From IMG/VR virus record IMGVR_UViG_3300029305_003293, positions 54,161 to 118,160 of that record: 64,000 nucleotides of DNA. One strand, written 5' to 3'. The DNA comes from a virus (taxonomy: Duplodnaviria > Heunggongvirae > Uroviricota > Caudoviricetes). Of the stretch, positions 39,271 to 64,000 are shown one piece after another. How positions within the stretch are numbered: the stretch's first letter is position 1; each line of letters opens with the position of its first letter. A model generated the notes under the pieces. That model made no database searches, had not been told where the DNA came from, and worked only from the letters and a program-made list of their open reading frames with translations. The position numbers and the translations under genes are program-made.

Positions 39271-39274
39271 TTAC

Positions 39275-40002: not shown

Positions 40003-40050
40003 CTTAACCTTACATATATATTATATAATATTTTTTATAAAAAATCAAAG
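40003..40050 (-). promoter_or_regulatory. sigma70-type promoter, repeated family
   Basis: Minus strand: TTGATTTTTTATAAAAAATATTATATAATATATATGTAAGGT. Confidence 0.6.
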
Positions 40051-40138
40051 GGTAGATGACATCATCAAGACTCATCCACCCCAAATTCTAGAAAAACAAC
40101 TACTACAAATACTATCCATAAAAGTATGACAAACTAAA

Positions 40139-41948: not shown

Positions 41949-42124
41949 CTACATCACTCCTTCGGCATACAATGACAAAGAATAGAAAGATCTGCAATAA
42001 TCATACAAAGAAGACCGAGCATTGCAGGTTCTCGGGGAATATTGTATTTAGAACAAATATAGCTGTATCCTACGTAAGCAAGAAAATTGATAATTCTTGA
42101 AACCATTAGAATCTTTCTCCTTTA

Positions 42125-42170
42125 TTTATTTTACATATATATTATATCAAAAATATAAAAAAAAATCAAG
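42125..42170 (-). promoter_or_regulatory. sigma70-type promoter, repeated family
   Basis: Minus strand: TTGATTTTTTTTTATATTTTTGATATAATATATATGTAAA, directly after a terminator. Confidence 0.55.
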
Positions 42171-42196
42171 GAGAAGATTATTCCTTCTCCTTTTTA
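42166..42196 (-). terminator. rho-independent terminator
   Basis: Minus strand: GGAGAAGG-AATAATC-TTCTCC followed by TTGATTTTTTTTT. Confidence 0.5.
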
Positions 42197-42331
42197 TTAT
42201 GAATTTTTCTTACAAATTCATCTGTTGCTTTTGTCTGAGCGCATAACGCTCCAAAAAAGTATCCTAGTGTTCCGCTTAATACAATACAAAAAATTATAGA
42301 TAAAATAGACATATTAAAACTCCTTAAACAA

Positions 42332-42358
42332 AAACCCGCCATAAGGCGGGTTATTTAA
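42332..42358 (-). terminator. rho-independent terminator
   Basis: Minus strand: AACCCGCC-TTAT-GGCGGGTT followed by TTTGTTT; after the vWA gene. Confidence 0.55.
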
Positions 42359-43909
42359 TTACTGAATACAAGCATAACGCTCCTTATTCAGAACTTCCAT
42401 CATCAGATCATAACCAGACTTGCCGGTCATAATAGACTGGAAGATAGAAGGGCTGAAGCCGGACACATAGCTTACCTTGGAACCATCCAACATAGGAATG
42501 TTAGACTGCCGTGCGTTGACATTCCAGAAGATAAGATGAGGAACCTCATAACCTTCTGCACGCCACTGCTTAGCAATACCTTCCATAAGAGTGTCAGCCA
42601 TGTGCATCTGCTCTTCATTAGGACGCTCATTCCAATAACTGTAGTTGCCAGTTGCCCGGTCAAACTCCATATCGGAAATTACGATAATGTTTTGAGGCAG
42701 ATCTGCCTGAGACATCTTATAACGACGAGCAGTAGTGAGAAGCATATTAAATGCAGCCTCAATATTGGTATTCTGGCACAGATTAGTCGCAACGATGCGA
42801 TCAACCTTGTCGCAGAAGTCTACACCTTCACACTCAATCAACTGAGGACGAGAACTGAAGGAGATGTAATGATTAGCAAAAGGACCATTGGCCTTTTCCG
42901 CACAATACAGACCGAAAGAGACAGCAACATTCATAGGAGTGCCAAGCATAGAACCCGAAGTGTCCACCATGGCAAGAGCATTGAAGGTTGCACCATTGAA
43001 ATAATCGGTAAGATTATCCCAATACTTATTAATCATGAGACGATCAGTATTATCGAGAGCAGGCTTTTCACGACGGGCCCAAGTGTAAGACTGAGGCTGA
43101 GGCTCCATCAGATTAATAGCCTTTTCAACGACTTCGTAAGGATAAAGAGTGCCGGCATTAACCTTAGTATTCTCATCCTTAGCGAAATCAGCATAAGACT
43201 GAACATTCTCATTCTTCATACGCTCAAGATCGTGGCGAGCGAAAGCGTTCTTATAGATAAGACCAGCCTTAGAAGGGATCTTATCAAACTCAATCTCGTC
43301 CCAACGATTCTCAGACATCAACTTCTCAAGAACATTGATGCGAGTGCGCAGAGCAGCAAGAACCTTGCGGTATTCCTTATGGGTCATACCGAGATAGCTG
43401 CGAGTGATATTACCCAGACGAGTAGATTCCTTAGAAGAAGCATTCTCGCTCTTGAGCCACTTTGCCAGCAAAGAAGGAGTCTTACACTCAACATCCAGTG
43501 CAAGCTGGTGCTTCATGATGGACAAAGCATCTTCCTGAAGAGGAGTGTCGATAAAAGCATACAGATCATCCCAGCGACCGAACTCAGGGATATGCTTCAT
43601 ATTGCGGCGAATCGCCTCTCGGCTATCAGCCTGCTTTGCAGCATCAGTCAGAATGGTGCGGAAGAAACGACGCTCGCCCTGGCCACCACGCACATCTCGG
43701 ATATAGAAAAGACACTTCAGCGCATAAACAGGATTTTCCTGAAATGCCTTACGCCACATAAGGATAATATCCGACTCATCGCGCTGACGCATAGCCGCAC
43801 CCATAGCAAACATATCCATCAGATTGCTGGTAGTAGTCTTATGAGTAAGAGCGCCATTTTCAGTGAAAGTCAGATTAGTATCATTCTTCAAAGCATTAAG
43901 CATAGTCAT
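42359..43909 (-). CDS. vWA-domain protein (DUF2828/TROVE-like)
   Basis: MIDAS-like VDTSGSM. 516 aa. A 5' UTR hairpin (GCCCCTTG...CAAGGGGC) lies at 43941-43958. Confidence 0.45.
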   Translation of the reverse strand: MTMLNALKNDTNLTFTENGALTHKTTTSNLMDMFAMGAAMRQRDESDIILMWRKAFQENPVYALKCLFYIRDVRGGQGERRFFRTILTDAAKQADSREAIRRNMKHIPEFGRWDDLYAFIDTPLQEDALSIMKHQLALDVECKTPSLLAKWLKSENASSKESTRLGNITRSYLGMTHKEYRKVLAALRTRINVLEKLMSENRWDEIEFDKIPSKAGLIYKNAFARHDLERMKNENVQSYADFAKDENTKVNAGTLYPYEVVEKAINLMEPQPQSYTWARREKPALDNTDRLMINKYWDNLTDYFNGATFNALAMVDTSGSMLGTPMNVAVSFGLYCAEKANGPFANHYISFSSRPQLIECEGVDFCDKVDRIVATNLCQNTNIEAAFNMLLTTARRYKMSQADLPQNIIVISDMEFDRATGNYSYWNERPNEEQMHMADTLMEGIAKQWRAEGYEVPHLIFWNVNARQSNIPMLDGSKVSYVSGFSPSIFQSIMTGKSGYDLMMEVLNKERYACIQ

Positions 43910-52814: not shown

Positions 52815-54121
52815 TAATAAGCAATTAACTCCTCTAACGCTCCATTTGCTAATAATCTAATGGTTCCTAATGGAATTACACTCGCATTATTAGTCTAAGT
52901 TCCATGTTCACCAGCATAACAAGAAATGCCGCCTGTAAATACAAACAATAAACGTTTTAATATTGGATCTATATATTTTTTATCGATCTCACCTGCAGCA
53001 ACCATTGCTAATAATAGTGAATCTAATGAACTTTCACTTAACCTGTGATTCATTTGATAAGCAGCATTTGTATATTCAATACGGTCTAACTCTTTATCAG
53101 TAAAAGCAACCTAAGTATTAATCGCGAATTTTTTATCTTTTTCGCCACCCATCATATAACTATCATACATGCGATGACAAGTCATGATATTACCCTTGTG
53201 ATCAATAACTGCAGAGCCAATTCCTGCTCCGCATCTTAATTCTGAACCAGTATAATCTAATACGCCAACAGAATCTTTCCACGAAAAAATAAAACGCTGT
53301 ATAATAGGATGACTATATTCAGGTAATTGAGTAATATCAATTTCTCTTAATTTTCTAATAAGTTTACCATAGTTAATACCATCCTATTTAGTATAATTAT
53401 ATGGTGTTACTAATGTTGGCTCTTGAGTTAAATGTAAATTAATATAATTATTATTATTAATTAACTTACGACATTTTTGTTGTAATATATCAAAAAACTA
53501 TAGCCATTTAAATAAATTATCATTCTCTAATAATTTTGGCCATCTATCGGCAGGCACAGTAGGTTTAGTGTGTAAACTCAAATAAAACTAATCACCAGAT
53601 AATGTTTTATTATTTTCGCAAGTATCCAAAATAGTCTAATAAATAATATCAGTAATGCCCTTATAACCTCTTGAGACATCAGTAATTTCAGCAGGGCCAT
53701 CCAATGAAAACTAGATTGTTAAATGAATAGGACGATCATGTAATTCACTATATTTTTTAAAATATTCTATATATGGTTTAATTCCTTTTTCATAACCCAA
53801 TAAACCATTAGTAGAAAACATAAATGTTTCTAAAAAAGGAAAAAATTCTAATAATGGTTCACAAAAAGTCGCAATTAAATCAGCATTTAAAGTTGGTTCA
53901 CCAGACCATAATGACAAACCTTTTATATTATATTTAGCTTCATTAAATTTTGTAATAATATTATTTTGAAAAGAACCATCAACAATACTGTTTCTAATTT
54001 CTTCATTGTATAAATGCATATTTGAAGGATTTTTATGAATAAAACAATATTCACAAGCTAAATTGCAACTACCCACAAACACACATTCTAAATGATCAAT
54101 CGTTTTTACTAAACTACGCAT
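52795..54121 (-). CDS. radical SAM enzyme with a SPASM-like domain; multiple in-frame TAG codons and an apparent 1-nt frame discontinuity near 53635
   Basis: CNLACEYCF (CxxxCxxC) in the track ORF 53711-54121. The downstream frame carries CGAGIGSAVIDHKGNIMTCHRM and GGISCYAGEHG Cys clusters. The TAA at 52795 overlaps the start of the next radical SAM gene. Confidence 0.5.
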
Positions 54122-54142
54122 ATAATAATTATTTTTTCACAA

Positions 54143-54427
54143 TTATATACTATATAAACGTGAAATTAATTCTCCTCCACACTTTCTAAAACCGCTATAA
54201 CGAACGGAACCATTATTTCCTCCACAATGACTGCCATCGCCGCTACCTCGACTATTATGGCTTCGTACTGAACCATTGTGGCTTGTATAATTAGAGCTCC
54301 AATTAGAACCACAATGTGTATCTATCATATTTTGAGCATTAGTCTAAGCTGTAGTAAGCCATCTACCAACATCGCTCGCTTTGACTAAAGAACCTTGTGA
54401 ACCTGAAGTTAAATTCGTCCAAGCCAT
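54143..54427 (-). CDS. small Cys/Gly/Ser/Asn-rich protein, precursor-peptide-like (paralog 1), with an in-frame TAG
   Basis: RBS GGAGGAG plus ATG: MAWTNLTSGSQGSLVKASDVGRWLTTA-TAG-TNAQNMIDTHCGSNWSSNYTSHNGSVRSHNSRGSGDGSHCGGNNGSVRYSGFRKCGGELISRLYSI. Confidence 0.4.
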
Positions 54428-54738
54428 TGTACCATTTCTCCTCCACACTTATTATTAGTATAAACAGATCGATTGCTGCAATTGCTATTACCGCTACCTA
54501 CTCCATTATGACTACAATTACTGTGAGTGCCCGGTTTAGAAGTAGCATAAGATGAATTAGCAGCACTACCTATATTATTTAATTCTGTCAATAAAGCGGA
54601 TTTTAATAATGTACCTGCCGCTATAGAATTAGTCCAAGTATAAGTACTACCCGTTGTAATACGATAAGCAGATGCTATAGTATTTTTAATACTATTAACG
54701 TCAGCAGCTTGTACTTTCTAACCCTGTGTTAAAGCCAT
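54409..54738 (-). CDS. small Cys/Gly/Ser/Asn-rich protein, precursor-peptide-like (paralog 2), with an in-frame TAG at codon 7
   Basis: RBS AAGGTGGG plus an ATG at 54736-54738: MALTQG-TAG-KVQAADVNSIKNTIASAYRITTGSTYTWTNSIAAGTLLKSALLTELNNIGSAANSSYATSKPGTHSNCSHNGVGSGNSNCSNRSVYTNNKCGGEMVQWLGRI. Confidence 0.4.
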
Positions 54739-54847
54739 ATAAAATATCCCACCTTTATTTAAATTTTATATATAAAATATAAAATACCAGTCTATATTAT
54801 ATATAAAATTTAAACTAATATTTTAATATAATTTGCCCTTATTTAAC

Positions 54848-54890
54848 TCTTTAATTAAATTATATCATATTTTTTTTCTAAAGTCAAATG
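54848..54890 (-). promoter_or_regulatory. sigma70-type promoter upstream of the precursor-like/radical SAM gene cluster
   Basis: Minus strand: TTGACTTTAGAAAAAAAATATGATATAATTTAATTAAAG (TTGACT-N17-TATAAT). It lacks the ATATATGTAAGG extension of the other copies. Confidence 0.55.
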
Positions 54891-54987
54891 AATTTTTCTA
54901 AACCCATTTTTGAATTGACCGTGCCCGCGCCGAGCAACCAAATATTTCCTTTATACCAATATCATAGCATAATTTTTCTAGAAAGTC

Positions 54988-55025
54988 AAAAAAGGTGGGT
55001 TCATCACATTCATGATGAACCCACC
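54988..55025 (-). terminator. rho-independent terminator at the downstream end of the tRNA array
   Basis: Minus strand: GGTGGGTTCATCA-TGAATG-TGATGAACCCACC (13-bp stem) followed by TTTTTT; just after tRNA-Val. Confidence 0.6.
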
Positions 55026-55065
55026 TTAAAGGCCAAGAGCTTCGTAAGTTTTCTGGGCACTGAAC

Positions 55066-55141
55066 TGGTGCGAAGTGACGGGCTCGAACCGCCGACCCTC
55101 TGCTTGTAAGGCAGATGCTCTCCCAGCTGAGCTAACCCCGC
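55066..55141 (-). tRNA. tRNA-Val (anticodon UAC)
   Basis: Cloverleaf with acceptor GCGGGGU/ACUUCGC (two G-U pairs), anticodon loop CUUACAA, T-loop GGTTCGAGCC, CCA encoded. Confidence 0.8.
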
Positions 55142-55479
55142 AAGTTGGGCTTCATTGAAGCCCGTCGAAAGGAAAGGAAGAAAGAAGTAAAGTGCTTTGC
55201 ATCAATAATTATTTCAAAAGAATGTTGTGATTTCAAGAGATACAATTCAAAATCTTTAATTATCTGTAGCAAAGCGTCATCACGATCTAATATTGTTAGA
55301 TCTCCAAACTATTACTTAATAATAGTATCATTGCTGTTAATCTCTTCAGTCAGATATTAGACAATCTCTTTAACTCTTACGAGGGGCCAAAGCATTTCTA
55401 TTACTGACCGCACATTTTTTTTCTTGTATTAATTCTTGCATTTTATAATTACATTACAAATTGCAGTTTAGGCCCAATG

Positions 55480-55567
55480 TGGCGGAAGCGGCAGGATTCG
55501 AACCTGCGGAGCTGTTACACTCTCTTGTTTTCTAGACAAGTGCCATAATCCACTCGGCCACGCTTCC
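55480..55567 (-). tRNA. tRNA-Ser-like, type II; anticodon loop CUAGAAA reads AGA in the canonical register
   Basis: GGAAGCG...CGCUUCC acceptor, discriminator G, long variable arm, T-loop GGTTCGAATCC, CCA encoded. A at position 34 is unusual, and the loop contains the triplet CUA. Confidence 0.6.
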
Positions 55568-55589
55568 ATAAACAAACAAGGCACGCATC

Positions 55590-55661
55590 GACCGGAAAGG
55601 AGACTCGAACTCCTGAGTTCCACCTTGAGGGTAGCGTTCTAACCATCTGAACTATTCTGGT
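55590..55661 (-). pseudogene. atypical tRNA-like element (irregular anticodon arm, no CCA)
   Basis: Acceptor ACCAGAA/UUCCGGU with an A-C mismatch, D-arm GUUC...GAAC and T-arm AGGAG-UUCGAGU-CUCCU. The anticodon arm has either a 5-nt loop or the loop CCUCAAG (UCA or CAA). Confidence 0.35.
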
Positions 55662-55687
55662 AGTTTTGCTGTTTATGCCTTTTGAAC

Positions 55688-55764
55688 TGGTCCGCCATCT
55701 AGGACTTGAACCCAGGACAAGCTGTATATAAGACAGCCGCTCTAACCAGCTGAACTAATGGCGG
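55688..55764 (-). tRNA. tRNA-Ile (anticodon UAU)
   Basis: Acceptor CCGCCAU/AUGGCGG, anticodon loop CUUAUAU, T-loop GGTTCAAGTCC, CCA encoded. Confidence 0.7.
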
Positions 55765-55770
55765 ATAAAA

Positions 55771-55846
55771 TGGAGCCGGTGACAGGACTTGAACCTGCAA
55801 CCTAGTGATTACAAATCACTTGCGCTGCCAATTGCGCCACACCGGC
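55771..55846 (-). tRNA. tRNA-Thr (anticodon UGU)
   Basis: Acceptor GCCGGUG/CACCGGC, anticodon stem AGUGA/UCACU with loop UUUGUAA, CCA encoded. Confidence 0.7.
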
Positions 55847-56105
55847 ACAAAGATAACCGAAACGCACCATTCTTCAAACTACACCGCTTACTGTATGACC
55901 ACGAGCCAAGCGCCTTTCTCCCCTTGAGGTCTGGGGCCCACACCCGCCTCGTTATCCAAACAATACGCCTCGTATTATCTTGCCTAATTTTTAAATAACT
56001 CCATATGTTTTGCGGCTTACATATTTTGTTATCAAAAATTAGAAAATTCTATCACAATAAATAAATATCACAATATCATCCAGTTATCAATCCGCTCTTG
56101 GATGC

Positions 56106-56181
56106 TGGCTGGGGTGGTAGGGCTCGAACCTACATATGCACGGGTCAAAGCCGTGTGCCTTCACCATTTGGCGACACCCCA
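56106..56181 (-). tRNA. tRNA-Gln (anticodon UUG)
   Basis: Resembles E. coli tRNA-Gln: UGGGGUG...CACCCCA G CCA, loop CUUUGAC. Confidence 0.8.
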
Positions 56182-56194
56182 TTAGATGGTTGAA

Positions 56195-56443
56195 TTACTC
56201 AACCACGCGGAAACGATCAAACTCAAGAGGAAAATGTCCGTCATGAATAAGATTGATTAGATACATACCACCAGAAAAATCAGCTCGCGCATACAGCATA
56301 CCAAGCATAGAACCCGGATTCACTGCGTATTCGCCACGAAAATCTTCAAGTCGATAAGTATCTTCTGCTCGCGCGATTAGACTAATGAAATCAACAAGAT
56401 CTCGTTCAGTTTCAATCGCAATTCGCATTCGAGTATTAGGCAT
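56195..56443 (-). CDS. hypothetical protein embedded in the tRNA array
   Basis: 82-aa ORF lying between tRNA-Gln and tRNA-His. Confidence 0.3.
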   Translation of the reverse strand: MPNTRMRIAIETERDLVDFISLIARAEDTYRLEDFRGEYAVNPGSMLGMLYARADFSGGMYLINLIHDGHFPLEFDRFRVVE

Positions 56444-56470
56444 AACTCTAACTCCTTTTGATTAAATAAA

Positions 56471-56547
56471 TGGGGTGTGCGATGGGACTTGAACCCACAA
56501 ACCACAAGAGCCACAATCTTGCGCTCTACCATTGAGCTACGCACAAC
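56471..56547 (-). tRNA. tRNA-His (anticodon GUG) with an extra 5' G(-1)
   Basis: G-1 pairs with C73; loop UUGUGGC; T-loop GGTTCAAGTCC; CCA encoded. There is one U1-C72 mismatch. Confidence 0.7.
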
Positions 56548-56672
56548 ATATAAAGCTTCGGGAGCGAACTATTCCACATATTTTTGGACAATATGCTTTA
56601 TCAAATTATTGCCCGAAGCATGACACCAAAATACATATTGGGAGTTTTTTGACAAAGAGGCACCCAGCTCTG

Positions 56673-56749
56673 TGGCGACTCCGATGGGGTTCGAACCCAC
56701 GACCTCTAGCGTGACAGGCTAGCGCTCTAACCAGCTGAGCTACGGAGCC
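56673..56749 (-). tRNA. tRNA-Asp (anticodon GUC)
   Basis: GGCUCCG...CGGAGUC G CCA; loop CUGUCAC; T-loop GGTTCGAACCC. Confidence 0.8.
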
Positions 56750-57212
56750 ATATTAAGCCCTACAGTATAGGCTGGGCTGCCTCTTCTCGTACTGCTCAAA
56801 GGATTTTTTATCCATCATACTCTTTGCTCTACCAAATCAAAAAGTACTAAAGGAGACGATACTAATCAAGAAAGCAGTTACATCCGGCGTCGCTTCCTTA
56901 TCTCACACTCAGTCATCCTCGCTCGTCTCAACGAGGCTCTATGTCATCTCTCTTGATTAGATGTTAGTTTTTATTGGCTTGCGGTAATTACTAACAACCC
57001 ACATAGCACTCCACATTTAACTCTTTTCGCCAATCGAGGAAAATGCTTCATCATGCGGACTTATCTCAAGTATAAGTCTCATTGCGACCACTCGCGTCCC
57101 ACCAGTCTGTTGACCTTTTTGGTTATTACAAGTCTCACCTGCCAAAGCCTTGTCCGTCGCATATTTTATTGAAAAATCCGGAGTTTATTTACTCTCCCTA
57201 CGGCAAAGGAGA

Positions 57213-57289
57213 TGGTCGGGCATCTTGGACTCGAACCAAGGACTTCCACCTTATCAGAGTGGCGCTCTAACCAACTGAACTAATGCCCG
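57213..57289 (-). tRNA. tRNA-Ile (anticodon GAU)
   Basis: CGGGCAU...AUGCCCG A CCA; loop CUGAUAA; T-loop GGTTCGAGTCC. Confidence 0.8.
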
Positions 57290-57291
57290 AT

Positions 57292-57411
57292 ATACAAGAC
57301 AGCTAACTAGTTTTGCTCGACCAATTGAGCTATTCACACCACACGGCATAAAATCGGACTCGAACCGATAACACAAACTTAGAGTTTGAATTTGCTGTAA
57401 CTGTCTTAAAA
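57292..57411 (-). pseudogene. tRNA-like fragments (D-arm-like TAGCTCAATTGGTCGAGCA and T-arm-like ATCGGTTCGAGTCCGAT) with no complete cloverleaf
   Basis: Segments with tRNA arm signatures that do not assemble into a tRNA; no matching acceptor halves were found. Confidence 0.3.
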
Positions 57412-57458
57412 TGGTGCCGAGAGTGGGACTTGAACCCACACATCTTTTGGATACTTGA
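57412..57458 (-). other. 3' half of a split type-II Leu-like tRNA (UCAAG stem strand, variable arm, T-arm, UCUCGGC acceptor strand, A, CCA)
   Basis: UCAAG-UAUCCAAAAGAUG-UGUGGG-UUCAAGU-CCCAC-UCUCGGC-A-CCA. It pairs with the 5' half at 58094-58125, located 660 nt away. Confidence 0.5.
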
Positions 57459-57459
57459 T

Positions 57460-57942
57460 TTAACGATTATTTTTACCACCATAACTATCTGTTATAGCAT
57501 GGCAATTTGGGCAACGATATTCTAAATTACTTAATTCATTATTTGTTCTATCTCCATCCTTATAATGTAATTGTAGAGTAAGAATGTGTCCCATCCAATT
57601 TCCATCACATCCACATCCAGCACATTGATAAGGAATTAATTTATCTTTATCAATATATCGTCTTAATGTTATATTGGAGATATCTTTACCTTTTACGAAT
57701 AAAGTTTCAATAGAATATTTTTCTTCAAAATCTGGTTTATCTCGCCAATGCTATCCAGTAAAATGCGAAATATCAATTTCATATTCAGCAATTTTTTTTC
57801 TAAGTGTAGCTTGACTTCCGCCACCTTGTGCTCTTCCAGCTTTTCGCAATACTTCAGCCAGCGAATAACTCTCTGCACATAGTTCTTGCAACCAGTCTTT
57901 TGAATATTTTCGTAATGACATAATTATCACACTTCCTTTCAT
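57460..57942 (-). CDS. HNH homing-endonuclease-like protein with an in-frame TAG (57751-57753)
   Basis: RBS AAAGGAAG plus an ATG at 57942. The track ORF 57751-57942 continues through TAG into CAGCGCDGNWMGHILTLQLHYKDGDRTNNELSNLEYRCPNCH (HNH/zinc motif). Confidence 0.55.
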
Positions 57943-57994
57943 TGTATTATGAAAGTTTTATTAGTCTGCCTAATTACGTCTGCCCATTTTTTTT

Positions 57995-58081
57995 TGGTGG
58001 GAGATATGGGACTTGAACCCATACGAGAATTAACTCAAAGGTTTTTGAGACCTTCGTGTATGCCAATTCCACCAATCTCCC
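57995..58081 (-). tRNA. tRNA-Leu (anticodon CAA), type II
   Basis: GGGAGAU...AUCUCCC A CCA; anticodon stem AAGGU/ACCUU with loop CUCAAAA; long variable arm; T-loop GGTTCAAGTCC. Confidence 0.75.
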
Positions 58082-58093
58082 ATACTCGTCTTT

Positions 58094-58125
58094 TCAAGCG
58101 CGTCTGCCAATTCCACCATCCCGGC
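58094..58125 (-). other. 5' half of a split Leu-like tRNA (acceptor GCCGGGA, D-arm GUGG-AAUUGGCAGA-CGC, anticodon stem strand CUUGA)
   Basis: Complementary to the 3' half at 57412-57458: 7/7 acceptor pairs including one G-U, and anticodon stem CUUGA/UCAAG. Confidence 0.5.
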
Positions 58126-58190
58126 AAACTGTATGGGTTTTAAGAGTCCATACCCTCTTTGTAGCTCACTTTCGTGAGTGCCACCTTGCC

Positions 58191-58232
58191 TGGTCGGAGA
58201 GACAGGATTCGAACCTGCGGCCTCTTGATCCA
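58191..58232 (-). other. isolated tRNA 3' fragment (T-arm GCAGG-UUCGAAU-CCUGU, acceptor strand CUCUCCG, A, CCA)
   Basis: No matching 5' half (CGGAGAG) was found nearby. The fragment abuts the 3' end of the CDS 58247-58684. Confidence 0.4.
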
Positions 58233-58246
58233 GTTAATAATGCTCC

Positions 58247-58684
58247 TTATTTTAATACATTTTCTAATTCATAATCAGCTGCAAAGTTAATTCCTTTTAG
58301 CTGACCAGATTTAGGAGGAACAAACCTCAAAGTCTTGGTTATCGAACATTCTTGAACGGGAATGACATAACATTTGCCTTCAAAAAATGTTGCAAGATAA
58401 TCAATTTGGGTTTCATCATAGCGCTGTTGTTTCACACCTTTGCTGTTAATGTGGGCTGAACGAGCATAAAACATAAAAGCTGTTTTTGTTTCATCAGTCC
58501 AACTGGAACTTTTTACTTGAACTCGAATGATTTTTCCATCTTTATCAGCTAAAAAATCATATCGAGCGCAATCTCCATAAGGGATACTTACTTGAAATCC
58601 CGCAGCAATAAATGAACGAATACAATCAAGCTCTGTGGTCATTCCCTTGATTAACGTACTATCCACAATGAGTTTACTAGCCAA
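58247..58684 (-). CDS. putative PD-(D/E)xK-type nuclease
   Basis: YDFLADKDGKIIRVQVK resembles a D...(D/E)xK catalytic core. The gene abuts a tRNA 3' fragment. Confidence 0.3.
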   Translation of the reverse strand: MASKLIVDSTLIKGMTTELDCIRSFIAAGFQVSIPYGDCARYDFLADKDGKIIRVQVKSSSWTDETKTAFMFYARSAHINSKGVKQQRYDETQIDYLATFFEGKCYVIPVQECSITKTLRFVPPKSGQLKGINFAADYELENVLK

Positions 58685-58777
58685 ATCAAGCTGTCTACCA
58701 AACTGACATACTCCCCGATGATCAAGACGATTTTATCTGTACTACCATACATCTTTTTATTGCTGGTATCGTCTTTA

Positions 58778-58824
58778 TCAACCTTACATATTTATTATAT
58801 CATAATTTTTTTAATTTTTCAACT
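58778..58824 (-). promoter_or_regulatory. sigma70-type promoter, repeated family
   Basis: Minus strand: TTGAAAAATTAAAAAAATTATGATATAATAAATATGTAAGGT. Confidence 0.6.
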
Positions 58825-59236
58825 CTTCCATAATCTTAAGCTCGATAGGTTTCTTCTCTGTCTGAGAATTAGAACATATCATAAGAGCTTCCGCGATTGC
58901 CAGATAATCTCTGTCAACGAGTTGCATATCCGCAATCATATCTTCAATAATTACTCGATCTTCCATATGCTCAGCATATTTTTTCTTGAACTCAGTAACA
59001 TAATCATTTGCCTCATCATAAGTCTTATAATAAGAATGATGATCGTAGAGCATTCGATCAGTTCTTTCTTTACAATGAATACAAACAAAAGGTTCAAAAA
59101 TCTTGAATACAAGATATCGAGTATTTGTATTATATGATGCTTCATAATACCAAGGAAAGTCTTTATACTTATGATTACAGACCAGCTTCTGCGGTTTTGA
59201 TTCTTCGACTTTTGCCTTTCGCTTAAACCAGCCCAT
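58811..59236 (-). CDS. hypothetical protein
   Basis: 141-aa ORF downstream of the promoter at 58778-58824. Confidence 0.3.
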   Translation of the reverse strand: MGWFKRKAKVEESKPQKLVCNHKYKDFPWYYEASYNTNTRYLVFKIFEPFVCIHCKERTDRMLYDHHSYYKTYDEANDYVTEFKKKYAEHMEDRVIIEDMIADMQLVDRDYLAIAEALMICSNSQTEKKPIELKIMEELKN

Positions 59237-59263
59237 AATTACTCTCCTTTTAATTTAACTTAA

Positions 59264-59340
59264 TGGAGTGTCCTGCCGGATTTGAACCAGCGCATCACGG
59301 GGTTGCAACCCGCCGCCTTACCAGACTTGGCTAAGGACAC
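59264..59340 (-). tRNA. tRNA-Cys (anticodon GCA)
   Basis: GUGUCCU...AGGACAC U CCA; loop UUGCAAC; T-loop GGTTCAAATCC. Confidence 0.8.
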
Positions 59341-59429
59341 ATAAAACAAGACTTCCTGATTCACAGTAGTTTTCTTCATCAAAACTTAAATATCATATGT
59401 GTATATTTGCTGAAAGAAACCTTTAAAAA

Positions 59430-59504
59430 TGGTGGATCTGAGGGGAATCGAACCCCTAATTCCTGCTTGCAAGGCAGGTGTGTTACCATTAGCACTACAA
59501 ACCC
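59430..59504 (-). tRNA. tRNA-Ala (anticodon UGC)
   Basis: G3-U70 identity pair in GGGUUUG/CAGAUCC; loop CUUGCAA; T-loop GGGTTCGATTCCC; CCA encoded. Confidence 0.8.
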
Positions 59505-59728
59505 GCATTAGTGCCTGCGGATACAGGCAAAGAAAATTACCGAAAACAGTCGCCTAGGACTTTCACCCTATCTCCAGCCTCTTTCATCTGGTGTTCTCAT
59601 TCGTGCTTTCGCACCTTTTAAACTATCCGCACCTATCACGATTACCCAATCAACATTTCTGTCCTTGTGCCGGGCCAGCTGGCGTGCGTCTATTAAGCGT
59701 AGCTATTATTCCAAGCCTATCGGTAATA

Positions 59729-59804
59729 TGGCCTCCCACAAAGGATTCGAACCCTCATTGCTTGATCCGTAGTCAAGTGTCCTGTCCAATTAGACGAATG
59801 GGAG
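59729..59804 (-). tRNA. tRNA-Arg (anticodon ACG)
   Basis: CUCCCAU...GUGGGAG G CCA; loop CUACGGA; T-loop GGTTCGAATCC. Confidence 0.75.
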
Positions 59805-59807
59805 AGA

Positions 59808-59884
59808 TGGGTGCCAAGGCTGGATTCGAACCAGCGATCTCCAACTTATGAGGATGGCGAGATGACCTGCTTCTCTACTCGGCA
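59808..59884 (-). tRNA. tRNA-Met/Ile2-like (anticodon CAU)
   Basis: UGCCGAG...CUUGGCA C CCA; loop CUCAUAA; T-arm GCUGG-UUCGAAU-CCAGC. Confidence 0.7.
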
Positions 59885-60170
59885 GCGCGTGCGTTCCTTT
59901 TGAGCGAACTACACATACTCTCTTTAATAACTCGTACTCTCGCCAAGTTTTAGCGGTTGCTAAATCTTTAACTCATTATAATTATCATCCTATTATAAGT
60001 TGCCACTACTCTTTAATTGATTAATTATAATTTATATGAGTGGACTTTTGTATATTAATTAGAGCGGACGATAATTCGCAACACGCATACCCCGGACTTG
60101 AGACCCGGCGGTGGTGGGTTATACAAGGGTCGGTATTTCCGTTAGGCTGGCCCCGACCGCAGGCTCTGTA

Positions 60171-60488
60171 TCAAGATTGAGCATAACCATAATGGGTAAG
60201 AAGTTGTTCCATATTCTGCCTACCGACCGGATTCATAGTATGCAGATGGAAGCCGAGTAAGGGGTAATTAGATGAAACAATGAACTTACAAATATCATAA
60301 CCGGTCTTTTCTTCACCCAGATCATGGTCTAAGTCGATGTATACTTCGCATACATCTCGGCATTGCTCGAGAAACTCAATGGTTGCCTGATAGGACCTTG
60401 TAGTGTGAGTGCCAGCGCCCTCACAGAAAGGAATGTTCTCAAAGGGATTCTTTCGTTCATCGTCTACCCAGAGGAAAACTTTTGTCAT
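60171..60488 (-). CDS. hypothetical protein
   Basis: 105-aa ORF downstream of the promoter at 60505-60553. Confidence 0.3.
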   Translation of the reverse strand: MTKVFLWVDDERKNPFENIPFCEGAGTHTTRSYQATIEFLEQCRDVCEVYIDLDHDLGEEKTGYDICKFIVSSNYPLLGFHLHTMNPVGRQNMEQLLTHYGYAQS

Positions 60489-60504
60489 TTGCTTGAACCC
60501 CTTT

Positions 60505-60553
60505 CCTTTACCTTACATATATATTATATAATAATTTTTATAATTTTTCAAAT
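60505..60553 (-). promoter_or_regulatory. sigma70-type promoter, repeated family
   Basis: Minus strand: TTGAAAAATTATAAAAATTATTATATAATATATATGTAAGGT. Confidence 0.6.
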
Positions 60554-60566
60554 CAGCGATTTGAAT

Positions 60567-60644
60567 TGGTGGGTTCGGTTGGTGTCGAGCCAACACTCTG
60601 CGGTTTTTCAGACCGCCGCATAAGACCGCTTGTGCTACGAACCC
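60567..60644 (-). tRNA. tRNA-Phe (anticodon GAA), atypical T-loop CUCGACA
   Basis: GGGUUCG...CGAACCC A CCA; anticodon stem GCGGU/ACCGC with loop CUGAAAA. Confidence 0.6.
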
Positions 60645-60650
60645 ATAAAT

Positions 60651-60724
60651 TGGAGCAAGTAGCGGGAATCGAACCCGCGACCTCAGCATGGCAAGCTGAT
60701 GTTTTACCTCTAAACTATACCTGC
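60651..60724 (-). tRNA. tRNA-Gly (anticodon GCC)
   Basis: GCAGGUA...UACUUGC U CCA; loop UUGCCAU; T-loop GGGTTCGATTCCC. Confidence 0.8.
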
Positions 60725-60725
60725 A

Positions 60726-61004
60726 TCACTTATCTTCATCATCATACCTACTACCATCTTCGCAATATTTACACTCCACAGTAGAAGGATCGACATCGCC
60801 ATATAATTCAATATACCAATCACGATAATGTTTCCAAATATAACCGGGGTCACTGATACAATCAGCATATCCAAATTTACAGCACATTGGATAATCAATG
60901 AAGTAGTCTTTAATATAAACATTTTTAGGATTATGCTTACAGACACCACATACTTCATCACTTTTGTTTGGATTAAAACAATTTTCACAATAGTTATATT
61001 TCAT
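60726..61004 (-). CDS. Cys-rich small protein
   Basis: MKYNYCENCFNPNKSDEVCGVCKHNP...MCCKFGYADC. The longer N-terminal part of the track ORF overlaps tRNA-Gly and is rejected. Confidence 0.3.
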   Translation of the reverse strand: MKYNYCENCFNPNKSDEVCGVCKHNPKNVYIKDYFIDYPMCCKFGYADCISDPGYIWKHYRDWYIELYGDVDPSTVECKYCEDGSRYDDEDK

Positions 61005-61078
61005 ATCATAAATCCGGCTATCACGGGGCGCCCTATGGTGGACACGCTTGAATTTCACATACCAATTAAACTTTAAAA

Positions 61079-61152
61079 TGGAGCACCATATGGGACTCGA
61101 ACCCACTACATCTGCTTGGAAGGCAGAGATGTTACCATTACACCAATGGTGC
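61079..61152 (-). tRNA. tRNA-Gly (anticodon UCC)
   Basis: GCACCAU...AUGGUGC U CCA; stem UCUGC/GCAGA with loop CUUCCAA; T-loop GGGTTCGAGTCCC. Confidence 0.8.
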
Positions 61153-61161
61153 ATCCGGGAA

Positions 61162-61866
61162 TTAACCCCACTGTTCTGCCATTGCTTTCGCAATTCCAGG
61201 AAAAGTTTTACTGCGAGCTTTCGCAGTTCGTGGATCACTCCATCTGATCGTCTTACCATTTTCATCATAAGCCGTATCAATAGAAGCATTTACTGAACGA
61301 CCATTTCCTGCAAGAGGGCCGCAATCAACAATTTCAGTTAGAACAAGAGGTTGAACTCCCTTCTCCCAAAGACAAGTTTTCTTGCGTGCTCTTTCGCCAA
61401 ACTCATATGGTTGAATCATTTGCGCTGGCTTTTGCGGCAGACCATATCGTTCTGCCAAATCAGGAAAATGTTCTTTCAGATAAGAACCGCTGATAATACA
61501 TACGGGATTTTCTACAACAACTTTATCGCAATCTGCCTCAAGAAATTGACAGAAAAATTCTATCGCTTCTCTTTGGCGTCCATCCGCACGCTTTGCTGCG
61601 AAATGTCTTGCGCCACTCACAGCTAAATGAGTGCAAGGTGGATGCGCAATAATCATATCCCAACGATCTTCGATCTTATGCTCTTGACCGTCCATTGTAA
61701 TAAAAGTGGTTTTACCATTTAATAGGGGTAGGACATCACCAAGAATGTGCCATTCTGGATGACCGCCACTACATTCCTAAATATCACAGGAGAAAGCTCG
61801 ATGTCCTTTTGCGCGAAACGCCTTACAGACTTCTTGACTTTCTTCACAAGCAATTAAAACATTCAT
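61162..61866 (-). CDS. DNA cytosine-5-methyltransferase-like protein with an in-frame TAG (61777-61779)
   Basis: RBS AGGAG plus ATG: MNVLIACEESQ...FSCDI-TAG-ECSGGHPEW... joined to the track ORF carrying AHPPCTHLAVSG (PC motif) and VVVENPV (ENV-like). Confidence 0.4.
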
Positions 61867-61943
61867 AAACAAGACTCCTTACGATAAAACTAATATGCAG
61901 CAGTTATTTGTAAAAAAGATTGCTGAAAGAGTCTTTATCCCTG

Positions 61944-62036
61944 TGGCAGCCCCTCTGGGACTCGAACCCAGACTACCTCCTTCAGAGGGATATCACGGTT
62001 TTAGAGACCGGTGTTCTGCCATTGAACTAAGGGGCA
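61944..62036 (-). tRNA. amber suppressor tRNA (anticodon CUA, reads UAG), long-variable-arm type
   Basis: Acceptor UGCCCCU/AGGGGCU, discriminator G, CCA encoded. D-arm GUUC-AAUGGCA-GAAC. Anticodon stem CCGGU/ACCGU with loop CUCUAAA (U33, CUA, A37). 23-nt variable arm. T-arm CUGGG-UUCGAGU-CCCAG. U1, G73 and the CCGGU stem resemble tRNA-Gln. Confidence 0.75.
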
Positions 62037-62039
62037 TCG

Positions 62040-62085
62040 CAACCTTATATAAATATTATATCAAAAAATTTTGAAAAAGTCAATT
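62040..62085 (-). promoter_or_regulatory. sigma70-type promoter, repeated family
   Basis: Minus strand: TTGACTTTTTCAAAATTTTTTGATATAATATTTATATAAGGT, upstream of the suppressor tRNA. Confidence 0.6.
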
Positions 62086-62322
62086 GGGGTGATAATAAAT
62101 TCCATGAAGAATAAAACCATCGTGATCAGCATAAAGACCTTCAATAATATCATATTTATCTACAAGCCGATAGCCGAAAGAATCTTGTAAATTCCTGGGA
62201 TCAGATTCTTTAAAAGACTCAATCATCTTATTGGCTTCTTCTATACTATTCGCAGCAATAAGAGAATAGCCAGAATAATATATTTTAGAAGGAATCTGAT
62301 ATACTTTATACAATGGAATCAT
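62080..62322 (-). CDS. hypothetical protein
   Basis: Track ORF trimmed to an internal start (MIPLYKVYQ...) because its N-terminal part overlaps tRNA-Arg. Confidence 0.3.
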   Translation of the reverse strand: MIPLYKVYQIPSKIYYSGYSLIAANSIEEANKMIESFKESDPRNLQDSFGYRLVDKYDIIEGLYADHDGFILHGIYYHPN

Positions 62323-62331
62323 CTCCTTAAA

Positions 62332-62408
62332 TGGTCCGCCCGAAGGGATTTGAACCCCTGACACTCTGCTTAGAAGGCAGATGCTCTATCCAACTGAGCT
62401 ACGGGCGG
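62332..62408 (-). tRNA. tRNA-Arg (anticodon UCU)
   Basis: CCGCCCG...CGGGCGG A CCA; loop CUUCUAA; T-loop GGGGTTCAAATCCC. Confidence 0.8.
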
Positions 62409-62429
62409 TCGGCGGGTATTAACCCGCTT

Positions 62430-62783
62430 TTAGTCAAGCTCCCAAGCTAAGTCATAATAGCGTTTATGACGACATCCTCTACGAGTAGGAATATCATCAT
62501 GATCTTCCATCATTTCTCTCTTGAGTGCTCTGCGAACCTTACGGTTAGCTTGCTTCTTGACAAATTTATAATAATTGCCGTCAGAATTAGAGTGTTCGCG
62601 CCAATAGTCAAGAGGATGCCAATTCTTCCATCTCTCTTCATCCTTGAAGCGAATTACCATTTCATTCCAGGTACCATAACCATACCAGAAATATTTTTTT
62701 GCATAACGCTCTTTCATCTTGCGCTTATGAAGGCGCTTACGACGATACTGATTCAATCTGCGTCCATTTTCATACATAGGCAA
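62430..62783 (-). CDS. highly basic hypothetical protein
   Basis: 117-aa Arg/Lys-rich ORF. Confidence 0.3.
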   Translation of the reverse strand: MPMYENGRRLNQYRRKRLHKRKMKERYAKKYFWYGYGTWNEMVIRFKDEERWKNWHPLDYWREHSNSDGNYYKFVKKQANRKVRRALKREMMEDHDDIPTRRGCRHKRYYDLAWELD

Positions 62784-62802
62784 GCCTCCTCAATTAAAGG
62801 TT

Positions 62803-62876
62803 TGGCAGGGGATGAAAGACTTGAACTCTCACCAACGCTTTTGGAGAGCGGCATGCTGCCATTACACCAATCCCCT
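62803..62876 (-). tRNA. tRNA-Trp (anticodon CCA)
   Basis: AGGGGAU...AUCCCCU G CCA; loop CUCCAAA; T-arm GAGAG-UUCAAGU-CUUUC. Confidence 0.75.
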
Positions 62877-62926
62877 ATACTATATATAGAAATTAGATGG
62901 GAAAGATAATCAGAAATTGCCCTCAA

Positions 62927-63070
62927 GGAATAAAATGTTTTGCTGACACCAGCAACCATTCTCGAGTATCTTTGGAATAAATCAAAAATTGCGGATAACC
63001 ATTGGAATCATATCGCACATCATATACGATAACATCTTCCCAAGATTCTCTCCACTTTACTTTAAACATA
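62927..63070 (-). CDS. small hypothetical protein (48 aa)
   Basis: RBS GGAG plus ATG: MFKVKWRESWEDVIVYDVRYDSNGYPQFLIYSKDTREWLLVSAKHFIP, ending in TGA. Confidence 0.2.
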
Positions 63071-63071
63071 T

Positions 63072-63527
63072 TTACTCCTTATCAAGAAACTTCAACATGA
63101 TCCAACCTTCGGTAGTCTTAGCCCACCATTCACCTTCATTGTCCGCCGCGAGCTTAATTACAGTCATTACATGACCTTCACCAACGCGCTTGATCTGCCT
63201 ACCATTAGGCGCTTCGCGCACATTTACACGACGACTGTTGACAATATACTTTTCATTATCAACGAGTTCAGGCTCATATGGACTAAGCCAAAGGGCATAT
63301 ACCCAACCACCAACTTCTTCAGTCCGAATAGTTGAAGAATAAGCCCAATCACCTTCAAAATAATCAACTTCAATTGACTGTCCGAAAGACATATAACCAA
63401 GTCGATCATGCTTTGTAGAAGCAGTTTCTCTGATATTAACTTCATCAGCATAGCAATAATATGTATCAGCCTTCGCAGAAGAGAACAACATCATACAGGC
63501 TGCCAAAACCGCAATTACTTTCTTCAT
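63072..63527 (-). CDS. secreted protein with two SH3b-like repeats
   Basis: RBS AAGGAG plus ATG: MKKVIAVLAACMMLFSSAKA signal peptide; VNIRE...GWVY and VNVREAPNG...GWIML repeats. The track N-terminal extension overlaps a tRNA and is rejected. Confidence 0.45.
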   Translation of the reverse strand: MKKVIAVLAACMMLFSSAKADTYYCYADEVNIRETASTKHDRLGYMSFGQSIEVDYFEGDWAYSSTIRTEEVGGWVYALWLSPYEPELVDNEKYIVNSRRVNVREAPNGRQIKRVGEGHVMTVIKLAADNEGEWWAKTTEGWIMLKFLDKE

Positions 63528-63551
63528 ATTATTGCTCCTTTTGAATAATAA

Positions 63552-63628
63552 TGGTACCGGCGACAGGATTTGAACCCGCAAAATCTTGATCCTAAGTCAA
63601 GCGCCTATGCCAATTCGGCTACGCCGGC
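63552..63628 (-). tRNA. tRNA-Leu-like (anticodon UAG, reads CUA/CUG) with an atypical short variable loop
   Basis: GCCGGCG...CGCCGGU A CCA; Leu-like D-arm GCC-GAAUUGGCAUA-GGC; stem CUUGA/UCAAG with loop CUUAGGA. It has a class I variable loop (AUUUU), unlike the other Leu tRNAs here. Confidence 0.55.
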
Positions 63629-63773
63629 ACGATGCGGTCTGTGGCCTCAGATTCCGCTCGCTCAACACTTTCTTTGGTCCCTGACCTCGGGCGCCCGGTC
63701 ATCTACGGTAGGCGGTAGTTGTATCACCGGATGGAGAATTTTTAGTAAATCAGATTACCATCATCAACTTAGG

Positions 63774-63860
63774 TGGTGCGGACGATGGGACTTGAACCCA
63801 TACGGTATTACTACCACTAGCACCTCAAGCTAGCACCTATGCCAATTCGGTTACGACCGC
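63774..63860 (-). tRNA. tRNA-Leu (anticodon GAG), type II
   Basis: GCGGUCG...CGUCCGC A CCA; stem CUAGC/GCUAG with loop UUGAGGU; long variable arm; T-loop GGGTTCAAGTCCC. Confidence 0.75.
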
Positions 63861-63863
63861 ATA

Positions 63864-63949
63864 TGGTGGGTGAGGTTGGATTCGAACCAACTCAGCCAGT
63901 GGCGACGGATTTACAGTCCGTTCCGACTCTCCAACTTCGGCGCTCACCC
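63864..63949 (-). tRNA. tRNA-Tyr (anticodon GUA), type II
   Basis: GGGUGAG...CUCACCC A CCA; stem ACGGA/UCCGU with loop CUGUAAA; long variable arm; T-loop GGTTCGAATCC. Confidence 0.8.
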
Positions 63950-64000
63950 ATAAAAATCGCCACATAAGTGGCGGGCCATTGCTAACAAACAGTGCGAATG

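Follow-up and report, generated by a model that had tools for sequence, protein, structure and literature searches.

The genome fragment analyzed here (the window) spans 64,000 nucleotides (nt) of the IMG/VR virus record IMGVR_UViG_3300029305_003293 (positions 54,161 to 118,160; Caudoviricetes) and contains, within an array of transfer RNA (tRNA) genes, two complementary halves of a leucine tRNA gene, denoted Leu-a, that are separated by an intact tRNA-Leu(CAA) gene, Leu-b, and a gene for an HNH homing endonuclease. Leu-a is probably a tRNA-Leu(CAA) gene that was disrupted in its anticodon loop by a mobile cassette of 635 base pairs (bp), that is, a scar and not a spliced intron; on balance, we also favor the enzyme's own cut as the cause of the insertion, an attribution made with somewhat less confidence. 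Comparison of related loci shows a mobile unit, with an HNH gene from an intron-derived, tRNA-Leu-associated clade, that resides without a ribozyme in the anticodon loop of tRNA-Leu(CAA); at least four loop nucleotides were lost at insertion, and the unit brings along a second tRNA-Leu(CAA) gene.

The split tRNA-Leu gene and the states of its site

Both halves are present as described in a first-pass annotation of this region that was made from the sequence alone: the 5' half includes the acceptor strand, the D arm and the CUUGA strand of the anticodon stem, and the 3' half includes the UCAAG strand, the variable arm, the T arm, the acceptor strand and CCA (Table 1). The halves pair with each other along the entire acceptor stem (7/7 pairs, one of them G.U) and anticodon stem (5/5), and ARAGORN in the intron mode calls a single tRNA across 57412-58125; in tRNA arrays, this mode produces many chimeras of neighboring tRNAs, and only the calls with ends not coinciding with annotated tRNAs were kept. 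Co-folding of the halves yields -27.6 kcal/mol (z = -2.2 compared to shuffled sequences), and both remnants are still perfectly foldable. The gap between them, originally put at about 660 nt, is actually 635 nt long and consists of a 12-nt leader, the tRNA-Leu(CAA) and HNH genes that had been recognized in the interval from the outset, and a 73-nt spacer between these two genes, the HNH open reading frame (ORF) being 153 codons long.

The anticodon loop is where the notion of a perfect type-II tRNA formed by the two halves breaks down. The canonical register, with the stem CUUGA/UCAAG of 5 bp, nt 26 in place and a 7-nt loop CUCAAAA, was set by the intact ortholog in the related contig L059 and by L011; a search with the T-arm and acceptor pattern, which served to fix this register, returned only unrelated phage tRNA-Leu genes. 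In the canonical register, merely UUAAA remains between the stem strands in the window. The U and UAA of this stretch coincide with the HNH codons CGU-UAA, namely, the last base of an arginine codon and the TAA stop, and the TAA stop is also found in L013 and L060, where no tRNA remnant comes after it. The match to the intact gene breaks off after A31 and restarts at A36-A38, and therefore at least CUCA (nt 32-35, with two anticodon bases out of three) is gone; the loss may extend up to nt 37. The cloverleaf that ARAGORN labels Leu(UAA) requires the anticodon stem to be slid by one base and nt 26 to be dropped. Judging from these alignments, the apparent UAA anticodon of the joined halves is the HNH stop codon. 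A reading of the joined loop as Leu(UAA) or an ochre suppressor (UUA) was dropped, given that the ortholog has CAA and that TAA is the conserved HNH stop.

The comparison with relatives lacking the HNH gene, one of the checks suggested in the first-pass annotation, proved decisive, with empty, replaced and inserted states of the site identified. The empty state is represented by L059, the single contig returned by a metagenome pattern scan with the YrlA-like RNA sequence, and by the IMG/VR contig L076. In L059, the order is tRNA-Pro(UGG), a spacer denoted X RNA, one intact tRNA-Leu(CAA) gene (351-435), the YrlA-like RNA and further tRNAs, with endonuclease genes absent; L076 has Leu-a followed by the YrlA-like RNA in the same order. 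In both contigs, tRNA-Leu(CAA) is intact, with the canonical stem and loop, and the YrlA-like RNA comes directly after it. In the replaced state, found in L013, the site holds other sequence (about 110 nt), another tRNA-Leu(CAA) and an HNH gene, followed by the YrlA-like RNA; no trace of Leu-a was detected at the matching site of L013, and the junction on the right coincides exactly with the 3' end of Leu-a. The inserted state is that of the window, where the cassette lies between nt 31 and nt 36-38 of Leu-a. These three states, together with the residence of the HNH clade in tRNA-Leu anticodon-loop introns (see below), support one of the two interpretations put forward at the outset, a rearrangement within the tRNA array mediated by a homing endonuclease.

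By synteny and sequence, we identify the halves in the window as the positional ortholog of the intact tRNA-Leu(CAA) gene of L059. The two genes have the stems and the T arm in common, with a compensatory change in the acceptor stem (G6-C67 in Leu-a of the window versus A6-U67 in L059), and the L059 gene is 77% identical to the window halves, compared to 65% identity to the internal tRNA. The synteny is anchored on the left by X RNA (~65 nt, from tRNA-Pro to the Leu site), in which one stem shows covariation when the window is compared with L059 (GUAUGG/CCAUAC versus GUAUGA/UCAUAC) and which has no match in Rfam. The right anchor, the YrlA-like RNA, lies downstream of the site in L013 (2517-2638), L059 (441-562) and L076; all YrlA-like matches (29-43 bits) are under the Rfam gathering score. 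Exact-match scans of IMG/VR with the 5' halves of the Leu and Pro genes gave no match, and a 15-mer from the D arm and anticodon stem of Leu-a hit mostly random coding DNA along with 10 intact tRNAs, including the one in L076, and no further split copies.

The window is AT-rich (36% G+C) and derives from an uncultivated phage, and a search of GenBank phages with positions 56900-59400 (blastn) retrieved nothing close, only short tRNA-like or coding matches. An assembly chimera could be suspected because assemblers can be misled by repeated tRNA-like sequence. A neighboring protein of 141 amino acids (aa) was, however, found on five metagenome contigs of the Joint Genome Institute (JGI), which come from five samples, are up to 173 kilobases (kb) long and are identical (100%) to the window across 56900-59400; given this identity of five independent contigs, the arrangement is not an assembly artifact, and we assign a chimeric origin a practically negligible probability.

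The cassette, its HNH gene and the search for an intron

The anticodon arm of Leu-b (AAGGU-CUCAAAA-ACCUU) has a stem unlike that of Leu-a, and the two genes share an identical 14-nt stretch in the D arm. The control region between Leu-b and the HNH gene includes a repeat, UGGGCAGAC..GGCAGAC, a CUUUCAU..AUGAAAG hairpin and the ribosome-binding site AGGAAG. In the HNH protein, the Pfam HNH_3 match is weak, and the motif H..N..N..H with CxxC pairs spans residues 100-141; 265 full-length homologs were identified, several of which carry PF13392 or PF01844, and because these homologs are equal to it in length, the window protein is not truncated. As noted in the first-pass annotation, the gene requires TAG read-through: its ORF contains one in-frame TAG (57753-57751), at the position of which L013, with an 88%-identical homolog, has CAG, and the TAGs of the L060 HNH gene align with CAA in the window gene. 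The alignment of TAG with glutamine codons in the homologs indicates recoding to glutamine, and judging from these comparisons TAG is a sense codon in this phage. TGA still behaves as a stop within long ORFs.

In three genomes, the HNH stop codon is the exact end of the cassette, and alignment with L013 and L060 shows the Leu-a 3' remnant as a clean indel (about 47 nt) that begins directly past this stop. In L060, the HNH protein is 84% identical at the aa level, Leu-b is nearly identical and the end, ..AAUCGUUAA, is the same; the cassette in this case lies behind tRNA-Arg and a drum-like RNA, in a left context unlike that of the window, and the halves are absent. In L013, L016, L061, L191 and L192, a tRNA-Leu(CAA) precedes the HNH gene by 23-77 nt (67-77 nt in L016 and L061/62), and in L017-19 it begins 3 nt past the HNH stop; every HNH-linked tRNA-Leu(CAA) has the loop CUCAAAA and an anticodon stem unlike that of Leu-a. 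Found as it is in L013, L060, L016, L061/62 and other contexts, the tRNA-Leu(CAA), control region and HNH gene form a recurrent unit. The HNH motif in a short self-contained ORF and the presence/absence polymorphism at one locus are those of a free-standing homing endonuclease. A drum-RNA-like element is found within the tRNA array of the window as well (56960-57056, minus strand; 36 bits versus a gathering score of 43); similar sequences adjoin the L060 cassette (about 1070-1170) and lie downstream of the L013 site.

A profile search of IMG/VR with the HNH protein yielded 80 loci. Among the 19 closest relatives (39-58% identity), 15 are encoded inside an interrupted tRNA anticodon loop, in inserts of 750-930 nt (loci L182-L200, for example, L186, 1295-2163); the host tRNAs are Leu(UAA) in 11 cases, Leu(CAA)-like in two and Phe(GAA) in two. 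Across the wider HNH family, 22 of the 57 tRNAs located within 120 nt of the ORF are tRNA-Leu. In the intron-borne inserts, exon 1 ends with ..GGGACUU, the insert ends with ..AUAGAGUAGUAAG (..GUAAG) and exon 2 starts with AAAAUCC; the U at the end of the exon, the G at the end of the insert and the AAAA of exon 2 identify the classical site of the tRNA-Leu(UAA) group I intron, between U34 and A35. In these inserts, the ORF is preceded by about 110 nt and followed by about 150 nt; the 5' part of the L186 insert gave a partial match to RF00028 (19.9 bits, E 0.014), and the 3' parts contain P7-like GACAUAGUCC..GGACUAC sequences. The HNH-bearing inserts between U34 and A35 of phage tRNA-Leu(UAA) are apparently group I introns. 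Those of L182-L200 are missed by standard tRNA finders and by Rfam at default thresholds. The window spacer, with its repeat, hairpin and ribosome-binding site, and the HNH gene align with the interior of these introns; compared to the introns, the window has the leader and Leu-b in place of the 5' core, and the 3' core is absent.

The covariance-model search for group I and group II cores between the halves, also suggested in the first-pass annotation, was run against Rfam and found none: there was no core at E<=1 across 54000-64000, and at E<=10 the segment 57400-58140 matched only tRNA. Profiles built with nhmmer from the 5' and 3' ribozyme cores of the related phage tRNA-Leu introns recover the held-out introns L190 and L200 with E from 1e-20 to 1e-38; the same profiles gave no match beyond noise in the window (E about 8-9) and none in L013, L060, L016 or L061. 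Group I introns follow a 5' exon with a terminal U (the U.G pair of P1), have G as their last base and, on excision, leave the host RNA exactly restored. Here, the 5' remnant ends with ..CUUGA, and no excision would restore the loop CUCAAAA of the ortholog. With no ribozyme core detected by Rfam or nhmmer, an A at the end of the 5' remnant and an anticodon that cannot be restored, the other initial interpretation, an intron-like insertion into the anticodon loop, did not hold up. The presumed intron, moreover, consists of an ordinary tRNA gene and an endonuclease gene equipped with its own control region, a pair that relatives carry in free-standing form.

A related possibility is a decayed group I intron, that is, an HNH intron that once resided in Leu-a and had its ribozyme parts lost or overwritten in place. 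Such a history would fit the homology of the HNH gene and control region with the intron-borne copies and the corresponding position of the HNH gene in tRNA-Leu. It appears rather improbable nevertheless: the empty-site relatives carry an intron-less Leu-a(CAA), a complete tRNA gene occupies the expected place of the 5' core, the tRNA and HNH unit is free-standing in other contexts, no core remnant was detected with the nhmmer core profiles, and loss of loop nucleotides is not an effect of intron homing.

Neither does the interval resemble other intron types. Group II introns are six-domain RNAs with a domain V, usually an ORF for a reverse transcriptase and more than 600 nt of RNA structure; the interval has no Rfam match of this kind and is occupied by a tRNA gene and the HNH ORF. 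In archaeal-type tRNA introns, a bulge-helix-bulge is formed by exon-intron pairing, and split tRNAs have complementary leader and trailer sequences. In the window, AAAGACGAG.., which follows the 5' remnant, does not pair with ..AAUAAUCGUUAA, which precedes the 3' remnant, and the loop is incomplete; no splicing endonuclease was recognizable among the phage ORFs covered by a partial scan.

The interval could still be a true intervening sequence that is removed by proteins, with an endonuclease cut followed by sealing by the phage RNA ligase, to give, for example, an 84-nt tRNA-Leu(UAA). ARAGORN -i accepts the joined halves, tRNA gene calling finds no tRNA-Leu(UAA) in the window, an RNA ligase is among the RNA-repair proteins of the phage (see below), and Lak megaphages are reported to have unexplained tRNA introns containing a tRNA. 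The product, however, would lack nt 26 or have a 5-nt loop, with the HNH stop codon as its anticodon and the ancestral CAA lost; the ends of the interval do not pair with each other, unlike those of the PD-(D/E)xK inserts described below, and relatives have the same cassette without the halves. Removal of the interval by proteins is, in our assessment, very unlikely.

Proposed course of the insertion and comparison with known systems

The preferred reading, disruption of Leu-a by a mobile cassette, can be cast as the following scenario. An ancestral HNH enzyme targeting tRNA-Leu anticodon loops would have left its intron, become linked to a spare tRNA-Leu(CAA) and then entered another tRNA-Leu(CAA) in ribozyme-less form. 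The enzyme is expected to cut the anticodon-loop DNA of tRNA-Leu genes, as its intron-encoded relatives would at an intron-less target. The usual repair from the carrier genome, via the flanking X RNA and YrlA-like homology, would produce the replaced state seen in L013. In the window lineage, repair of the break would instead have involved hardly any resection and an illegitimate copying of the donor cassette at short homology, which would leave both halves as a fossil of the cut. Leu-a would now be a dead pseudogene and Leu-b would supply the CAA anticodon, such that a spare gene, instead of splicing, would neutralize the cost of the insertion. Leu-b is presumably not cut by the HNH enzyme because its anticodon stem differs, although the loop is the same.

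Alternatively, the cassette might owe its place to recombination that involved paralogous tRNA-Leu genes, or to a different illegitimate rearrangement within the array; the HNH gene would then be a passenger, and cleavage by its product would have had no role. The 14-nt D-arm stretch common to Leu-a and Leu-b and the recombination-prone nature of tRNA arrays are compatible with such an origin; in addition, cleavage by the HNH protein is something that we infer, and the microhomology at the junction is minimal. The breakpoints, however, lie outside the shared D-arm stretch, the break is in the anticodon loop, where it brackets the U34-A35 site used by the intron-borne HNH relatives, and, in each of three genomes, the cassette terminates precisely with the HNH stop codon. 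We consider a passenger role of the HNH gene unlikely.

Several observations weigh against the disruption scenario. Identity between Leu-a and the L059 gene is merely about 77%, and the variable arms differ, so that the orthology of Leu-a rests largely on synteny and the shared stems; L059 itself is a 1.27-kb contig. We infer both the HNH target site and the resistance of Leu-b from sequence comparison. The possible microhomology at the junction is at most 2-3 nt (AA of the TAA stop versus A36-A37 of the loop), and the repair route is therefore a guess. The perfect foldability of the remnants fits a recent event and would also fit continued selection. Finally, the Lak tRNA introns that contain a tRNA, reported as unexplained (10.1101/356790), make a processing route for nested arrangements conceivable.

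Mobility of homing endonucleases in phage tRNA clusters is a known phenomenon, to which the window adds the twist of a spare gene in place of a ribozyme. SegB of phage T4, a GIY-YIG enzyme, performs intron-less homing in the tRNA cluster (PMC2330249), F-TflI/II/IV of phage T5 are, as cited in the same article, free-standing homing endonucleases of the tRNA cluster, and SegB-driven segmental amplification of a tRNA gene has been described (PMC13096335). As in the SegB and F-Tfl systems, the endonuclease gene in the window is packed among tRNA genes, the presumed target is within a tRNA gene of endonuclease-less genomes, the endonuclease and neighboring tRNA genes are co-inherited, and related phages are polymorphic for the presence of the endonuclease; the L013 state resembles the classical outcome of SegB-type homing. 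Unlike the GIY-YIG enzyme SegB, the window enzyme is an HNH protein related to intron-borne enzymes, and its presumed target is the anticodon loop as opposed to the T arm; unlike both SegB and F-Tfl, the window cassette is located inside the target gene with both halves preserved, an arrangement that, to our knowledge, has not been reported for either system.

Cyanobacteria and plastids have group I introns that interrupt the anticodon loop of tRNA-Leu(UAA) (reviewed in PMC3984707). With the phage versions that carry an HNH ORF (L182-L198), the window shares the tRNA-Leu host, the anticodon-loop location and the homologous endonuclease and control region, but it has no ribozyme core, its exon ends in A instead of U, loop nucleotides are lost and a whole tRNA gene lies inside; because the core, the exon rule, the loop and the nested tRNA all differ, the window split is not a member of this intron family. 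Lak megaphages, in which TAG is recoded, are described as having "enigmatic" tRNA introns, one of which is predicted to contain a tRNA (bioRxiv 10.1101/356790). By that description, the likeness consists in a TAG-recoded gut or rumen phage with a tRNA interrupted by a tRNA-encoding sequence of no Rfam class; the difference is that the Lak inserts are short conserved introns, with excision inferred from alleles with and without the insert. No endonuclease ORF is mentioned in the passages on the Lak inserts that were considered, and the likeness is drawn from their description. In the T4-like phage Aeh1, the nrdA gene is reportedly split by the insertion of the homing endonuclease gene mobE, and the two protein pieces are said to reassemble and keep their function. 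There, as in the window, a host gene harbors an endonuclease gene that is not part of an intron or intein; unlike nrdA, Leu-a is apparently lost, and a spare copy is carried along.

The natural sequences compared here show a single homing-endonuclease lineage with three lifestyles: within an apparently self-splicing intron of tRNA-Leu, free-standing next to tRNA-Leu, and as a ribozyme-less insertion into tRNA-Leu with a spare copy. The window would represent a rarely seen intermediate of primary invasion that points to the probable cleavage site of the enzyme, and it suggests an alternative to splicing as the means of making an insertion harmless, namely, bringing a replacement gene. On the practical side, intron-aware tRNA finders will report such scars as intron-containing tRNAs with a false anticodon.

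Table 1. Features of the window discussed in the text (window coordinates; RNA sequences are those of the minus strand).
Feature	Coordinates	Strand	Details
Leu-a 5' remnant, nt 1-31	58094..58125	minus	acceptor strand, D arm, 5' anticodon-stem strand CUUGA; 58125-58094: GCCGGGA-UG-GUG-GAAUUGGCAGA-CGC-G-CUUGA
Leader	58082..58093	minus	AAAGACGAGUAU, 12 nt; left edge of the cassette; homology to Leu-a stops just before it (alignments with L013, L059, L060)
Intact tRNA-Leu(CAA), Leu-b	57995..58081	minus	ARAGORN; Rfam tRNA 56 bits
HNH spacer/control region	57922..57994	minus	conserved in L013, L060 and inside the L186 and L194 group I introns
HNH homing-endonuclease gene	57460..57921	minus	153 codons, TAA stop at 57462-57460; phrog_10822 "HNH endonuclease", E 5e-41
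Leu-a 3' remnant	57412..57459	minus	A38, stem strand UCAAG, variable arm, T arm, acceptor strand, CCA; 57458-57412: UCAAG-UAUCCAAAAGAUGU-GUGGG-UUCAAGU-CCCAC-UCUCGGC-ACCA
X RNA spacer, left synteny anchor	58126..58190	minus	two hairpins; aligned in the window, L013 and L059
YrlA-like RNA (Y RNA-like, permuted tRNA-like), right synteny anchor	57296..57398	minus	RF02553, 32 bits, E 6e-4, below gathering score
Split tRNA-Pro(UGG)	58191..58717	minus	exon 1 58717-58681, 450-nt insert 58680-58231, exon 2 58230-58191; ARAGORN -i
PD-(D/E)xK endonuclease ORF in the tRNA-Pro insert	58666/58642 to 58247	minus	PF11645 E 2e-25; PDB 2OST (I-Ssp6803I) E 1e-7
tRNA(CUA), ARAGORN "Pyl"	61944-62036	minus	93 nt
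tRNA(UCA), ARAGORN "SeC"	55590-55661	minus	72 nt
RNA ligase	36583-38049	minus	PF09414 with PHA02142 OB domain
Metallophosphatase	40139-40870	minus	RNA-repair set
RlaP nucleotidyltransferase	41187-42008	minus	RNA-repair set
DUF2828/DUF7788 protein	42359-43909	minus	RNA-repair set

The interrupted tRNA-Pro gene and related tRNA inserts

The tRNA array, which extends on the minus strand from about 55 kb to the end of the window, encompasses 23 tRNA genes, two of which encode a CUA (amber) suppressor and a UCA tRNA (Table 1). The tRNA-Pro(UGG) gene directly upstream of the Leu site is interrupted by an insert of another class, with an ORF for a PD-(D/E)xK endonuclease, and this class is a more surprising object than the Leu split. 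All seven bases of the tRNA-Pro loop (UUUGG/GA, the slash marking the insert) are kept, and the gene is uninterrupted in L013 and L059. In cyanobacteria, endonucleases of the I-Ssp6803I family are borne by the group I intron of tRNA-fMet. In the window, the ORF fills about 420-440 of the 450 nt of the insert, which leaves no room for a ribozyme, and Rfam searches of this insert and of the ends of the PD-(D/E)xK inserts produced no match.

Homologous ORFs occupy inserts of 458-480 nt in tRNA anticodon loops in approximately 30 of 39 IMG/VR loci (L020-L058, contigs of large phages), and no group I intron signal was detected in these ~30 loci, as in the window. The hosts are mostly tRNA-Asp(GUC), along with Ile/Phe-like, Lys, Met, Thr, Glu and Leu tRNAs; for tRNA-Thr(CGU), there is a clean pair with and without the insert (L017, 3193-3731, versus L018/L019). 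The two ends of an insert base-pair mutually as well as with the anticodon loop, forming one long hairpin that extends the anticodon stem. In 13 Asp-type inserts (RNAalifold), 15 of the 22 pairs show compensatory changes, and this hairpin is 94.5% paired, compared to 79% for shuffled sequences, of which 0/500 reach the observed value, and to about 50% when the ends are slid. When the insert follows nt 36, its final three nucleotides complement the anticodon (Lys CUU/AAG, Ile GAU/AUC, Met CAU/AUG, Thr CGU/AUG, Pro UGG/CUG); the G.U pairs among these complements point to RNA rather than DNA. In L052 (1134-1692) and L055 (1135-1679), PD-(D/E)xK inserts lie in tRNA-Leu(CAA) between nt 31 and 32, and complementarity to the anticodon loop is found at the 5' end of the insert instead of in its 3' tail, a mirror image of the arrangement between nt 36 and 37.

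Known processing routes fit these inserts poorly. Group I introns would not have room; hammerhead or k-turn motifs around UGAC/CUGAUG gave no consistent fit and no Rfam match; the bulges of a bulge-helix-bulge are absent; and RNase III with a fixed 2-nt stagger disagrees with splice-site offsets of 1 or 3 bp. Ribozyme-less endonuclease inserts in phage tRNAs were not described in the literature searched. The inserts may be excised, for example, by an RNase III-like cut, with the halves resealed by the phage RNA ligase, or the tRNA may serve as a stable scaffold for the endonuclease mRNA. Genuine splicing of the Pro-type inserts by a non-ribozyme route is possible though doubtful; if true, excision and resealing would amount to a previously unknown mode of tRNA splicing in bacteria or viruses. 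We give very little credence to the extension of such protein splicing to the Leu/HNH split, with a Leu(UAA)-like tRNA as the product.

The RNA ligase belongs to a set of RNA-repair genes (36583-43909; Table 1) that, together with the Y RNA-like gene, resembles the bacterial repair operons that combine Ro, Y RNA and ligase. In L041, a match to a hepatitis delta virus (HDV)-like ribozyme (1655-1722; RF02682, 38 bits, below the gathering score) begins at the 3' end of the interrupted tRNA-Asp, and full-length ROOL RNAs (about 264 bits) lie beside tRNA arrays in L036 (2112-2698) and L184 (2145-2736). Elsewhere in the window, a 324-aa protein (20528-21502, minus strand) combines a long coiled-coil-like N-terminus with a C-terminal GIY-YIG domain (PF01541, E 6.5e-11) and may be another mobile endonuclease.

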